NCBI GenBank assembly: GCA_951406725.2
Contig: OX597814.1
Location: 110,546,001-110,610,000, forward strand
Length of the DNA stretch: 64,000 bases
Reading direction: 5' to 3'
Source: Octopus vulgaris
Taxonomy: Eukaryota
How positions within the stretch are numbered: the stretch's first letter is position 1; every line of letters starts with the position of its first letter. Shown in pieces: positions 1-22,917 of this stretch. The notes beneath the pieces are model-generated. The model ran no database searches. It was not told the DNA's origin and worked only from the letters and a program-made list of their open reading frames with translations. The position numbers and the translations under genes were made by a program.

Positions 1-322
1 ACTCTAAAATATTAGAGCAGTATTATATATATATCATCATCATCATCTGTTCTCCAAGCTGGTATGGGTTGGATGGATTAACTGAGGTCTGCAGAGCCTT
101 GTGGCTGCACCAGGTCTGATCTGGTAATGTTTCTACAGCTGGATGTCCCCTGAGAGTGTAGTGGGTGCTTTTTATGTGCCTCCGGCACATTTTCTAGGAT
201 GTTTGTTGTGATGACCAGTCAGAAGGTGATCATTGGTTTCACACCTATAGTTGAAAACACTTGCTGAAGAACCATGCAGTGGGACCAAACCAGGAACCAT
301 ATGGTGAGGAAGCAAGCTTCTT

Positions 323-2350
323 TATTTCATTAAATTTGCCACAAGGGCAGCACACAGAGAGAAGCTTGAGGGCTAGACAGAGACATTAATGGGATGAATG
401 ATGATGATATAAGGATGATAAGGATAGGAGAAGACGAAAAGCGCCCGCCGACTTTCGCTTCTCTAACACATTGTTCTTTTTTTCTTTTTTTTTTTAAAAC
501 AATGAGGCAATAAACCTCTTACACAGTTCAAAATTAAAAATAAAACACAAACGAGGTAATAATCCTCTCACTTTTTACATTTTTAGTCTCTTTTTGAGGT
601 AATACACCTCTTCAATTTTTCCGCCCGGCCAGGCTCCTCGCTTCATCGAAGCACCTGGTCCGTTCCGAACTTAAAGGTTTCAACATAATTCTGAAGGAGT
701 CCTTCGGGAAGGAGTTCGTTATCCTGCACAGATCGTTCTCCCATATGACCTCTGCAGCCACCTGCGAAGGCCACTCAGGGTCCTCCGTGTAGGACAGAAG
801 CCCCTCCCACCGGCACTTCCTCTCAATTTTTTTGATTTCATTTTGCAAGGTTCCTCCCTTGTGGAAGAGGACCAAAAATTCCTCCTCCAGCAGCACACCC
901 GCCAAAGGAGAATTGGGACACGCTGGCAGCGTGTCACAACCCGCCGGCAATGTCCCGTTTTTCTTTTTTCTTTTCTTTTTCCCTTGAGCTACAGGAGGGT
1001 GGTGTTCCCTTGCTGTGTCCAGCAGGTCCTCCTTTTCTCCCGCAGCTCTCGGGTTCCTCGGTGGGCAGCCATTGTTGCCCACCTTTCGCTTTCGTTTTTT
1101 CGAGGAGGTAGAAACCTCCTCGACATCCTCCTCCTTCTCTCCCTCCATTGAGGAAGCAGGGAGTGGTTCCTCTGTTAACTGCTGCAGGATCTTATTTTGG
1201 TCCTTGGGGCAGTTTTTCTTGATGTGGCTGGTCCCCAGGCACAGGTGACACTTGGCGAGGCGTCCCTCAAGCATCACCGGATACCTAGACCCGGCCATCC
1301 TCAAAAAATCTGGGAAAACCAGACTTTCGGCTGATTGGGTGCATAGGGTCAACACAGCTTTTGACCCCTCCCAATCAGCCACAGGCAAAATTTTTACGTT
1401 GAGCAGCTTGGTACTGCTGTCACCCAGACCCCGGCGGATAGAGTTCTCTATCCACTCATGCTCAACTCTGGGTAGCAAGCCGCAGACCCAAGCTCTTGTT
1501 AACTTCTTTCCACAATAACTGGGAAGAAACATTATTTCCTTCCCCTCGAGGGGCCGGCTTGCAAATTCGCAAGCTTTTTTGGGGGAGTCAAATAGCAACC
1601 AGACCATTGCAAATTTGACTCCCCGTGAAATAAATTTAATAGCTGGCATGTATTCTGCCAGCTCTTTCAAAATTGTGGCTTTCGGGAAGACGGTTATGGT
1701 ATCGAGTGACTTTGAATAAGTCCTCAACACCACCGTCTTCCTTTCGAGCTCTTTTAGCCATGATTTGGGAGGTGTTAATTCCCACACTAATATTTCCTTT
1801 GCCATTTTTTTTTAAAATAAAAAGTTCAAATACAGTTCGACAATACGTTTTCAAATAAAGGAAGATACATAAAAAAAGACAGAAGACACAACAGAAGGGA
1901 AGAAAAAATAAAATAACAGTTCAAATAAAGTTCTTTTTTTTTAAATAAATGATAGCTGTGAAAAGAGAGTTCAAATCCAGGCAAAGAAATAAATTTTCGG
2001 CTGAAAGGTACTCCTGGCCAATCCTTTTAATCCACGTGGGCACAAAAATTTTCAAATACAATTTCTCACAATTATGTGAGACAACACACACGTCTCCACT
2101 GCAAGGCAGACAAAAAGCTCCGAATCCAGTAAGGACTCCCTGCCTGTTCAAAAAAATAAAACCAACAGGCAACAAATCCTACTGGACTCACAAAGCAAAA
2201 AGTCTTACCTTACAGTAGAGCGTTTTTCAGTTCAACTTTTGCCAGCTGCATACCAGCGTGACGACTTCAACAGGTACGTGAAGAACACTGTTTTTGTTCT
2301 TTTTTCTTTTTAGGATGGAGCTCAAAGCTACACGTCTTCACAGTTCAGCC
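323..2350 (-). mobile_element. ORF1-only (HAL1-like, non-autonomous) non-LTR retroelement, Tx1/L1-type ORF1
   Basis: Perfect 15-bp TSD GGAAGCAAGCTTCTT at 308-322 and 2351-2365. Single long ORF 612-1805, ~545-nt 5' UTR and ~290-nt 3' UTR ending ATGAAATAAA on -. No room for, and no motifs of, endonuclease or RT. Confidence 0.85.
612..1805 (-). CDS. Gag-like/ORF1 nucleic-acid-binding protein with one CX2CX4HX4C zinc knuckle
   Basis: Intact 397-aa ORF. Motif EGRLAKCHLCLGTSHIKKNCP resembles Tx1-clade ORF1/ZCCHC3-type knuckles. Acidic stretch and basic NLS-like tracts (KKRKRK, KKKRKKK) follow. Confidence 0.85.
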   Translation of the reverse strand: MAKEILVWELTPPKSWLKELERKTVVLRTYSKSLDTITVFPKATILKELAEYMPAIKFISRGVKFAMVWLLFDSPKKACEFASRPLEGKEIMFLPSYCGKKLTRAWVCGLLPRVEHEWIENSIRRGLGDSSTKLLNVKILPVADWEGSKAVLTLCTQSAESLVFPDFLRMAGSRYPVMLEGRLAKCHLCLGTSHIKKNCPKDQNKILQQLTEEPLPASSMEGEKEEDVEEVSTSSKKRKRKVGNNGCPPRNPRAAGEKEDLLDTAREHHPPVAQGKKKRKKKNGTLPAGCDTLPACPNSPLAGVLLEEEFLVLFHKGGTLQNEIKKIERKCRWEGLLSYTEDPEWPSQVAAEVIWENDLCRITNSFPKDSFRIMLKPLSSERTRCFDEARSLAGRKN

Positions 2351-3334
2351 GGAAGCAAGCTTCTTACCACACAGCTATGCTTATACACATGTTTGCATAT
2401 GTATGTATATATATATATATATATATATACACACTCACATACACATATCATCATCCTCATCACTTAGCATTTGTTGTCCAAGCTAGCATGGTTGGACAGT
2501 TTGACCAGGGCCGATAAGCTGAGGGGTTGCACCAGACTCCAGTCTGATTTGGCATGGTTTCTATGACTGGGTGCCCTTCCTAATGCCAACCACTCCGAGA
2601 TATATGTACGTGTGTGTGTGTGTGTAATATATATACAAACACACACACGTACATATATACAATACATACATTTGTATCACCTGTCTTGAGCAGACTGTTG
2701 GATACTGTTATACACCACTGGTCACAATGCAGTTCCAATTCTTTCTTGATTGTAACCTTCTTTTCCATCTTGGCCCAAATCATTTTCCCTTCATCATGAA
2801 GGCCTCCTGGCTTACCTTTTCTGATCTCTTGGAAACAACTCAGCAATTGCATATATCCACTTGTTGATCAACCTTGTGACATGTTCAGCACAGTAAAACT
2901 TGTGTGTATATATCCTCATCTTACCACCCTCCTCTGGCCCCTGTGCCAGTGGCACGTAAAAAGCACCCACTACAGTGGTTGGCGTTAGGAAGGGCATCCA
3001 GCTGTAGAAACACTGCCAGATCAGACTGGAGCCTGGTACAGCCTCCTGGCTTCCCAGACTCCGGTTGAACCATCCAACCCATGCTAGTATGGAAAACGGA
3101 CGTTAAATGATGATGATGATGATTATCATCATCATCATTTAACATCCATTTTCCATGCTGGATATGTTTGATAGTTTGACTCCTGTCATGGTAAGCTCAG
3201 GAACCACGTAGGGCTCCATTCTCTGTTTGGTATGGTTTCCATGGCTGGTTGCCCTTCTTAATGCCAACTACTTTTTACAGAGTGTACTGGGTGCTTTTTA
3301 TGTGGCACCAGGATTGGTATAAGTTCTGGTGTGG

Positions 3335-19460: not shown

Positions 19461-20594
19461 CAGGAAAGACAAAATTGAACTCCACATAATTTTCTTTAAT
19501 GGTCTGTTGATTTTACTTCTAAAATATTACAACACCATAGAATTTCAAAATAGCCAAACCCCCCTCAAGTCATAACCCACTGTTAGAAAAACATGAAAAA
19601 AACTTGGATAGTATATTTTTAGATGCCCCTATAAAGATAGGATGGTCCAAACTGGGGCATCTTTGTTTAACCCCCTTGTCTGTTCAAAAGAGATGATATA
19701 GGACTGAGATACTTGGTGCATTGCTGTACTCAAGAAGACCCATCCATCACAGCAGAATTGTTAATGCCCCCTCCCAGCTGAAGGGGCTTTTGCATTGCAA
19801 GAACCTTGTGTCAGTGCTATGTAAAATGCACCCGTGCCAGGCCACATGAGAAGTACCCAACATGCTCTGTAAAGTGGTTGGTGTTAGGAAAGGCATATAG
19901 CCATAGAAACCAAGCCTGATCAGACAGGAACCTGGTGTGACTTCCAAGCTTGCCAACTCCATGTCAAACCGTCCATGCCAGCATGGAAAATGGACATTAA
20001 ATGATGATGTCAGAAATGGTGTAAGGGAATTGTTGATGCTATTTCTAGCAGGTCATGCTTTTTCATTTGATATTTATCTCTTGATTTTGTATATTTTTCA
20101 ATCGCTTCTAGGTATGTTATTAAAGAAGGTTTATTTCATAGGCCAATGTATGTTGCATTTTATAAAAATATATATAATTAGTAAAATATATTGTATTTTA
20201 TTGGCTAATCTCAAGTTATTGTTTTGTCTGAAATGTACTGACTGTTAATAAAATTATTTTCTTATTTTAACCAGTTGTTTGTTTTGTTTTTAATTTTGTT
20301 TTATAATTTTCATGCGACTTGTTGCAAGTGAATAGCATTTTGAAAAATTATTGCATTCTCAACATCCATATTTTTTCAATGTGCTATTGTTTTGAGATTT
20401 ACTTTTAATCCTTTTGACACCAACTCATCCGAGACTACTCCTGGTTCCATGATACAAATTCACTGTTTTCAAGTGGTCTAAATTAAAATCTTTCATGAAA
20501 ATTTTATGTTAATTTATGATCCAAACACCAGATTAACAATGACAATGTGATTTCCCTAAATTCTTTATTATTTAAAAAATTAATTGATATAAAG

Positions 20595-22917
20595 AGGTTT
20601 GGAGATGCCACTATGAAATGTTGCTGAATAAAGAAAATGAATGGGATAAAGAGAGTCTGCCAAATGTCAACCCAACAGAGGGACCAGCCATCCAAGTTGA
20701 CAGTTCCAAGGTAGTTAAGGCAATTAGAAGCATGAAGACAGGGAAAGCCCCAGGCCCATCTGGAATTACTGCAGGGATGCTCAAAATATCTGGCAGTGTC
20801 AGCTATAACCTAGCCACCCGTATAGTTAACCAGGTGATACACGAAGGAGTCATACCCAATGACTGGTGTAGCAGCATACTAGTCAACTGCTACAAAGGTA
20901 AAGGAGAAGCCCTAGATACAAATAATTACAGAGGTATCAAGCTGTTGGATCAGGTAATGGAGGTTACAGAGAGTGTCATAGCCCAACTGATTAGGGAGAG
21001 AGTCAACTTGGACGAGATGCAGTTTGGTTTCATGCCAGGGAAAAGCACCACTGATGCCATATTTCTGGTGAGACAGCTGCAGGAGAAATACCTAGCCAAA
21101 GATAAGCACCTGTACCTGGCTTTCGTTGACATGGAGAAAGCCTTTGACAGGGTCCCCCGATCCCTTATCTGGTGGTCAATGAGGAAACTAGGGATAGATG
21201 AATGGCTGGTGAGGGCTGTGCAAGCAATGTACAGGGATGCCGTAAGTAAGGTAAGAGTTAGCAACATGTACACAGAAGAATTCAAAGTAGAGGTTGGGGT
21301 CCACCAGGGTTCAGTACTCAGCCCCCTCCTATTTATCATAGTCCTCCAGGCAATTACGGAGGAATTCAAGACAGGTTGCCCTTGGGAGCTCCTATATGCT
21401 GACGACCTTGCTATAATTGCTGAGTCACTATCAGAACTGGAGGAGAAGTTCCAGGTGTGGAAGGAGGGTCTAGAATCGAGGGGCCTTAGAGTCAACCTAG
21501 CTAAAACCAAAGTACTAATAAGTAGGAAGGTAGAAAATCCACAAATGTCTTCAGGAAGATGGCCCTGCTCGATCTGTAGAAAAGGTGTAGGTAGAAACTC
21601 TATAAGATGTACCCAGTGTAAGCTATGGACACATAAGAGGTGCAGCAATGTCAAAGGAAGGCTAACTGGGAAGATAGTTTTTGTATGTGGCAGATGTTCG
21701 GGAGCATTAACCTCTGAAAATCTGCAGAAAACAACTTCCGTCACTTTCCAGGGGGAAAAACTAGAAGTATTTGATAGCTTCCGTTATCTTGGTGACCAAG
21801 TCAGTAGTGGGGGTGGGTGTGATGAAAGTGTAACGGCTAGAGTAAGAATAGCCTGGGCAAAGTTTAGGGAGCTCTTACCTCTGCTGGTGACTAAAGGCCT
21901 CTCGCTCAGAGTAAAAGGCAGACTATGATGCATGTGTACGAACAGCCATGCTACATGGCAGTGAAACATGGGCCGTGACTGCTGAGGACATGTGTAAGCT
22001 TGCGAGAAATGAAGCCAGTATGCTCCGATGGATGTGTAATGTCAGTGTGCATGCTCAACAGAACGTTAGTACCCTGAGAGTAATGTAGGACTTAAGGAGC
22101 ATCAGTTGTGGTGTGCAAGAGAGATAATTGCGCTGGTATGGTCATGTGGCGAGAATGGATGAAGATAGGTGTGTGAAAAAGTGCCAATCCCTAGCAGTGG
22201 AGGGAACCCGTGGAAGAGGTAGACCCAGGAAAACTTGGGCTGAGGTGGTGAAGCATGACCTTCGAACTTTAGGTCTCACTGAGGAAATGACCTGCGACCG
22301 AGACCTTTGGAAATATGCTGTGCATGAAAAGACCAGGCAGGACAAGTGAGTCCAGCCCACTTATGCATGCCTTTCCTCCCTTAGACACACAAAGACCTGT
22401 TGAGGCAAGCGAAGTCAATATCGAACCTCATCCGACGACAGGCACCTATGCCTACCCCACTTTGCTTGCAAAGACCTGTTGGGGCAAGTGAAATCGAAAT
22501 TGAACCAATCTTATGACTGGCACCTGGCAGATGCCAGGACCCCTGGACTGGAGATACGTAAAAAGCACTATCCGAATCGTGGCCAATGCCAGCGCCGCCT
22601 CGACTGGCTTCCGTGTCAGTGGCACATAAAAAGCACCATCCGAAGCCAGTGCCGCCTCGACTGGCTTCCGTGCAGGTGGCACGTAAAATGCACCAATCCG
22701 ACCGTGGCCGATGCCAGCCTCGCCTGGCTCCAGTGCAGGTGGCACGTAAAAAGCACCCACTACATTCACGGAGTGGTTGGTGTTAGGAAGGGAATCCAGC
22801 TGTAGAAACATTGCCAGATAAGACCGGAGCCTGGTGCAGCCTTCTGGCTTCCCAGATCCCCGGTCGAACCGTCCAACCCATGCTAGCATGGAGAACGGAC
22901 GTTAAACGATGATGATA
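20595..22917 (+). mobile_element. RTE-clade LINE, 5'-truncated, with RT, PHD finger, repeat-containing 3' UTR and (GAT)n tail
   Basis: RT motifs NYRGIKLL, QFGF, AFVDMEKAFDRV, GVHQGSVLSPLLF, LYADD, FRYLG; C-terminal RGRGRPRKTW typical of RTE. Confidence 0.95.
20618..22349 (+). pseudogene. Disrupted RTE reverse transcriptase ORF
   Basis: 436 aa open to 21928, where GACTATGA vs GACTGTATGA in the copy at ~28208 shows a 2-bp deletion. Further stop near 22087. N-terminal endonuclease absent. Confidence 0.9.

Follow-up and report, generated by a model that had tools for sequence, protein, structure and literature searches.

The element and its insertion site

The window, that is, the whole stretch of 64,000 nucleotides of Octopus vulgaris DNA analysed here, carries near its beginning a non-LTR retroelement that codes for ORF1 only and lies within the head of a SINE (Table 1). 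The element is flanked by a 15-bp perfect direct repeat, GGAAGCAAGCTTCTT (AAGAAGCTTGCTTCC on the minus strand), which is maximal, cannot be extended and is absent elsewhere on both strands of the window. Without the element, the site aligns unbroken to the head of a repeat that occurs 14 times in ~62 kb of the window. Read on the minus strand, the A-box-like motif TAGCTGTGTGG lies just 5' of the duplication and is followed by the element, the second copy of the duplication and, beyond it, the degenerate B-box-like motif GGTTTGGTCCC. Element and SINE have the same orientation. The arrangement described in the sequence-only reading was thus confirmed: the target duplication sits inside a SINE head, flanked by its A-box-like part on one side and its B-box-like part on the other, with the element in the same orientation.

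Table 1. Coordinates of the retroelement, its coding region and its target site in the window
Feature	Position	Strand	Remarks
ORF1-only non-LTR retroelement, 2,028 bp	323..2350	-	single copy in window
5' untranslated region, 545 bp	1806..2350	-	T-rich (38% T), many runs of four or more T
Intact ORF1, 397 aa	612..1805	-	shares 65% identity with O. sinensis LOC115225585; 33 relatives found (E<=0.001)
Two predicted RRM-like domains (~residues 13-100, 101-184)	1254..1769	-	AlphaFold model, Foldseek, VIA-align
CX2CX4HX4C zinc knuckle (residues 186-199)	1209..1250	-	from sequence; zf-CCHC matches in relatives; nucleocapsid-knuckle profile matches
3' untranslated region, 289 bp	323..611	-	ends in A-rich AATGAAATA, no poly(A) tract
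Target-site duplication, element 3'-end copy	308..322	-	15 bp; exact, maximal, unique pair in window
Target-site duplication, element 5'-end copy	2351..2365	-	same exact pair; joints landing on 2353
Target SINE head, 5' part	2366..2385	-	A-box-like motif at 2377-2367; alignment to head copies
Target SINE head, 3' part and start of body	246..307	-	B-box-like motif at 291-281; alignment to head copies

A half-profile search found 12 intact heads in the window, one split by the element and one without its 5' part, and no isolated 5' half-head elsewhere in the window. Heads occur about once per 4.5 kb and make up ~2% of the window (~1e-4 per base and strand). Their box-like motifs were named after the A and B box consensus. 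The B-box-like motif was matched in 7 of the 14 copies and the A-box-like motif was recognised by eye, the head matches being trimmed at the 5' end. A multicopy short repeat with such motifs at its 5' end is what is expected of a tRNA-derived SINE. In published work, tRNA-Core and tRNA-Deu figure as the principal SINEs of octopus and OR2 is classed as a CORE SINE, and SINEs account for 11.6% of the O. vulgaris genome (PMC13282606). ARAGORN found no tRNA genes, and there was no tRNA among 105 Rfam matches up to E 5. One of the four head copies folded gave a z of about -3. The earlier description of the head as tRNA-derived was not confirmed by ARAGORN or Rfam, and rests on the box motifs and the octopus SINE literature. 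A second abundant family of short repeats, with CAT/GAT tails, gave 23 matches (~2,950 bases) at 40-190 and 22 other places, and one of its copies adjoins the body of the target SINE.

We found no second copy of the element and no other ORF1 relative in the window. The element itself (323-2350) contains neither a reverse transcriptase nor an endonuclease, which makes it non-autonomous and unable to choose a target by itself. Hence, this copy, which lacks an ORF2 with an apurinic-like endonuclease and a reverse transcriptase, is not an autonomous Tx1 element. ORF1 is directly followed by the 3' tail, a HAL1-like layout in this copy. In public contigs, joints 525>722 and 530>629 connect the tail with the end of the ORF in other copies, so that the ORF1-only structure is probably a family trait. 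The 3' tail has no special fold (z 0.21), and three short direct repeats of the GAGGTAAT type (16 nt, 43-49 nt apart) lie at 496-611. A splice-donor-like AG/GTAAG is present in the 5' region at 2204-2210 on the minus strand; together with the three protein accessions of the closest O. sinensis gene, it suggests that the 5' region may be spliced.

No Pfam family was matched by ORF1. An AlphaFold model built on a 36-sequence alignment shows two confident domains (block pLDDT 83-97) and a disordered C-terminal half. The top Foldseek match was to the RRMs of hnRNP A1 (E 1e-4), and alignment to a nucleolin RRM with VIA-align gave a Z of 9.1 and an rmsd of 2.5 over 78 residues. Both predicted domains match RRM folds, with the CCHC knuckle directly after them, and an Atlas lead for ORF1 pointed to ZCCHC3-type RNA-binding domains (0.91). 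ORF1 is thus predicted to have an RRM-RRM-CCHC organisation, the Type I ORF1 architecture. Type I ORF1 is consistent with Tx1 in non-mammalian animals (PMC5203782); it fits this clade but is not unique to it and is no proof of membership.

Eleven of the ORF1 relatives were looked up, and all seven that are named come from Octopus or Argonauta; many relatives carry zf-CCHC. None was found in metagenome or prokaryote contigs. Among the longer proteins (1,092-3,115 aa) there was no ORF1-ORF2 fusion and only a SPT6 zinc-knuckle match, which is weak evidence. Three distant relatives (P0003, P0004 and P0012) reside on contigs of 1.7-2.2 kb, near the length of the element, a weak hint of further ORF1-only families. 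The O. sinensis gene model P0015 combines ~45 residues like the start of ORF1 (58% identity) with part of an integrase, and was probably annotated as a chimera across nested elements.

Junctions of other copies in public contigs

Contigs of four public runs, with four organism labels, were aligned to positions 200-2398 at 86% likeness. Part of the element is contained in 20 of 24 listed runs, and no RNA run holding it was found among them. Contigs of all four aligned runs cover the element in 30 of 30 bins and are mostly 90-99% alike. The rows obtained were the best 15 of 102 joints, the best 24 of 1,455 loose ends and the best 32 of 20,369 pieces.

Ten of the best 15 of 102 joints are internal deletions. 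Another three connect positions inside the element (1465, 1545 and 2239) with SINE base 2353, and the remaining two begin where the left duplication ends and land on 2352-2353. A second set (best 12 of 56) adds 1633>2353, 2215>2353 and 339>2358. Base 2353 is thus shared by five of six element-to-SINE joints, each with a different internal start, and the sixth is at 2358. The six come from two organism labels, 1633 from X1 and the others from X2. Because the element lies on the minus strand, the joints to 2353 represent 5'-truncated copies with a SINE head as 5' flank. This flank ends 13 nt from the presumed nick, and the SINE-matching sides measure 21-22 nt. The duplication at the 5' flank is 13 bp (to 2353) in other copies versus 15 bp here; hence, 2351-2352 may represent 2 nt of microhomology in the present copy.

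Five of the six joints show intervening letters, 2-25 nt in length, and in none do they include the SINE B box. Those of the 1465 joint align by eye to a diverged 1466-1489, that is, to another subfamily. At the 1633 joint (X1), the last junction letters repeat 9 nt of the target flank in inverted form; they may either derive from snap-back synthesis on the target, as would be expected at a 5' junction, or represent ~13 further nt of SINE. The joint whose intervening letters are not shown is that at 2239, and the 2215 and 2239 joints might belong to one 5'-shortened subfamily. As a source of the joints, tailless SINE halves inserted in element copies were considered and discarded, given that the window holds no isolated 5' half-head.

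Six joints were left out of the count. Four do not start inside the element (2377>245, 2380>215, 2380>2289 and 295>2360), and for two (321>2352 and 322>2353, both X2) the enclosed sequence is not given. These two show the target with a 13-bp duplication around unread or no sequence, and may correspond to other elements or to abortive events using the same site.

On the 3' side, loose ends before 308 occur in 18 contigs of X1 and 10 of X2. Their letters follow the SINE consensus, with an agreement of 0.55 and 0.65. An alignment starting at 308 needs the element for its length, and the loose ends are therefore read as 3' junctions; from their letters, we infer that they lie in many different SINE copies. 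One record (record 25, 90% alike) leaves the element at its 3' end and reaches 310, inside the duplication; on the 5' side, record 8 passes over the boundary of the element and extends to 2362. In a further record (record 9, X11), the match on the 3' side stops at 319 and gives way to 429 unlike letters, which indicates an off-target copy. Off-target insertion therefore concerns one of the two listed 3'-spanning records. No loose end at the element boundaries 323 or 2350 is present among the best 24 of 1,455; off-target junctions are visible only as loose ends, and joints can be detected over only ~11-15 SINE positions. In addition, seven contigs of X2 have a loose end behind 348. They share only the last ~26 bases of the tail, followed by other letters, and may carry the tail of a sister family of passengers or that of the autonomous partner itself.

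Altogether, these data support the earlier proposal that the SINE head is the target, through the recurrent joining at 2353, with at least one copy appearing off target. The flanks of other copies, checked in part through the public contigs, comprise five truncated copies at 2353 and 3' contigs that appear SINE-flanked. In the rule of Kojima 2015, a target-specific family has more than 20% of its flanks in the same repeat and independently truncated copies on the target. Here, copies truncated at five different points meet the SINE at 2353, and a sixth does so at 2358. A target-site duplication and 5'-truncated copies, both Tx1 traits, are present.

To estimate how often such recurrence would arise by chance, the null took 14 heads in 123,300 strand positions, with the SINE density of this single window. 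When all 1,557 joint and loose-end rows are counted as junctions, a generous null, 0.18 are expected at one base and P(>=5) is 1e-6. With a tolerance of 11 bases, the same rows give an expectation of 1.9 and P(>=5) of 0.048, so that the argument rests on five of six joints falling at one base. The most hostile assumption, a gross over-count in which all 20,369 pieces are junctions, gives a P of 0.085.

These figures bear on the idea that specificity is weak or absent, with an L1-type enzyme nicking T-rich/A sites anywhere, including TTCTT/AC, and only reference-matching junctions being displayed. The nick preference of L1 is TTTT/AA, and the presumed nick motif of the octopus element resembles it. 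The off-target record 9 also speaks for such an enzyme, as do the biases in the display of rows and in the detection of junctions. Nevertheless, TTTTA occurs 399 times and TCTTA 156 times in the window, compared with only 13-14 sites of the SINE type, one base is common to five of six joints, and the loose ends listed avoid both element boundaries. We regard such weak or absent specificity as quite unlikely.

A single ancestral SINE insertion amplified as a composite, or later deletions mimicking truncation, could in principle produce joints to one base, and among the pieces listed (best 32 of 20,369) no contig spans the whole copy with both flanks. However, the left breakpoints vary while the right one is fixed at the edge of the duplication, extra nucleotides are found at the junctions, and at least one truncated copy derives from another subfamily. 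Moreover, the copies do not have a common 3' flank (agreement 0.55-0.65). Such hitchhiking is thus very unlikely, and truncated copies are used in the same way as an argument in Kojima 2015.

The match of the flanks to the SINE is also relevant to whether a tRNA gene family is the real target, with SINE heads entered as look-alikes, as with tRNA-specific elements. Non-LTR families specific to tRNA genes are known (NeSL-1_TV, LIN15_SM and LIN25_SM; PMC4640811), DNA transposons of the Dada group cluster around the A box and the anticodon (PMC8869645), and the insertion site described here adjoins an A-box-like motif. Against this, it is the SINE that is matched both by the flank letters at 308 and by the sides of 21-22 nt at 2353, and the heads themselves are not recognised as tRNA by ARAGORN or Rfam. 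A primary preference for tRNA genes is, in our opinion, unlikely.

Finally, the copies could be chimeric retrocopies, in which the 5' half of a SINE RNA, broken near the anticodon-like loop, became linked with element RNA through ligation or a template switch. U6/L1 chimeras are a precedent for RNA chimeras of this type. A fixed 5' junction in the would-be anticodon loop and the extra junction nucleotides would be in line with such an origin, but the copy in the window has the duplication at both ends, with the SINE resuming past its 3' end, and the 3' loose ends of other copies also appear to run on into SINE. Consequently, we consider chimera formation extremely unlikely.

Proposed mechanism and relation to known elements

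Our results point to an octopod ORF1-only retroelement whose copies are recurrently found at one base of the SINE head and which likely owes its insertion to an autonomous partner of the Tx1 type that supplies a sequence-specific endonuclease and a reverse transcriptase; we consider this explanation probable. Target choice is mainly set by the endonuclease, and non-autonomous passengers share the target of their partner (PMC4494074). Thirteen recently active L1-Tx1 families are reported in O. vulgaris (PMC13282606, Table 1). Our searches revealed no autonomous partner, nor the reverse transcriptase or endonuclease of one. A separate LINE fragment at 20588-21928 on the plus strand, RTE-like by appearance, has an open frame of 446 codons with an RVT_1 match (E 1e-31) and a weak PHD-like finger.

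In the proposed cycle, the element RNA would probably be made by Pol II. The sense strand carries 21 runs of four or more T, the first at 2201, and transcription of the whole element from the SINE Pol III promoter was discarded by inference, since the T-runs in the first 200 bases would stop Pol III. The ORF1 protein would bind the RNA that encodes it, and the partner would take up this RNA in trans. A bottom-strand nick made by the partner would fall at 5'-GCTTCTT/ACCACAC-3', just past the A box. Going by LINE biology, reverse transcription would be target-primed from the A-rich 3' end, with the partner again acting in trans. A cut in the top strand ~13 nt downstream of the nick would give rise to duplications of 13-15 bp and frequent 5' truncation. 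Insertion would move the A and B boxes of the SINE apart by up to 2 kb, and the SINE promoter would be disabled by their separation. The target would be dispensable and available about once per 4.5 kb, and the SINE may be interpreted as a 'safe haven'.

Insertion into other transposons is a known strategy of the Tx1 clade. As described in PMC4494074, Tx1L of Xenopus targets Tx1D (piggyBac), Tx1-Mar targets Mariner-N4_AMi, Tx1-9_AMi targets Harbinger, and Tx1-8_Crp and Tx1-4_AMi target LTR elements. The octopus element resembles the Tx1L and Tx1-Mar group in having a fixed site in another abundant transposon, truncated copies on the target and, by prediction, a Type I ORF1 (PMC4494074). Unlike these families, it has as target a SINE head between promoter-like boxes, codes for ORF1 only and lives in a mollusc. 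A close parallel for a passenger is SINEU-3 of crocodilians, a non-autonomous element that inherits the target of its partner: 313 of 347 copies adjoin Mariner-N4_AMi, and the duplication given, 16 bp, is similar in length to the 15 bp found here (PMC4494074). SINEU-3, however, is snRNA-derived and non-coding, whereas the octopus element is 2 kb long with an intact ORF1. In this respect it is similar to HAL1 (half-L1), a non-autonomous LINE derivative encoding only ORF1p, although HAL1 is mammalian, derived from L1 and endowed with a Transposase_22-type ORF1, and no fixed target is given for it in the part of PMC5753468 seen. By analogy, the octopus element would work like Tx1L, Tx1-Mar and SINEU-3, and be built like HAL1. 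The literature compared also takes in parts of PMC4758252, PMC8967140, PMC5911963, PMC13269885 and PMC11203168.

Dewa and Mutsu are elements that target small-RNA genes. A fixed site in a multicopy sequence of the small-RNA type, near an A box, is likewise shared with Keno (U2), NeSL-1_TV, LIN15_SM and LIN25_SM (tRNA genes) and Dada. Functional RNA genes are the targets of these elements, whereas SINE-copy flanks were observed for the octopus element.

We found no retrotransposon targeting a SINE head in the literature searched. The published Tx1 targets found were DNA and LTR transposons, with no SINE head among them; Fig. 3 and the supplements of PMC4494074 may list more. A term search for 'target' gave no matches in the searched part of PMC13282606, which deals with the L1-Tx1 families of O. 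vulgaris. The new aspect of the present case would therefore be the SINE head as target.

A target of this kind links the strategy of targeting small-RNA genes with that of targeting transposons, and offers a test of how the specificity for tRNA genes moves to the selfish sequences derived from them. As more than a tenth of the O. vulgaris genome consists of SINEs, there is a huge target space, and even a strict enzyme would spread genome-wide. Moreover, an intact ORF1 in a non-autonomous passenger bears on the benefit of ORF1 to its RNA in cis, and the endonuclease of the partner would add a defined specificity on the 20-nt scale to those known. More tentatively, and with slightly less than even confidence, we envisage an octopod Tx1-type lineage and a coding ORF1-only passenger that have specialised on the promoter of an abundant SINE. 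This hyperparasite would cut between the A and B boxes, enjoy a vast and harmless target space, and disable each SINE that it enters. If true, octopods would provide the first retrotransposon system specific for a SINE head, with an endonuclease that would act as a natural SINE-targeting nickase.
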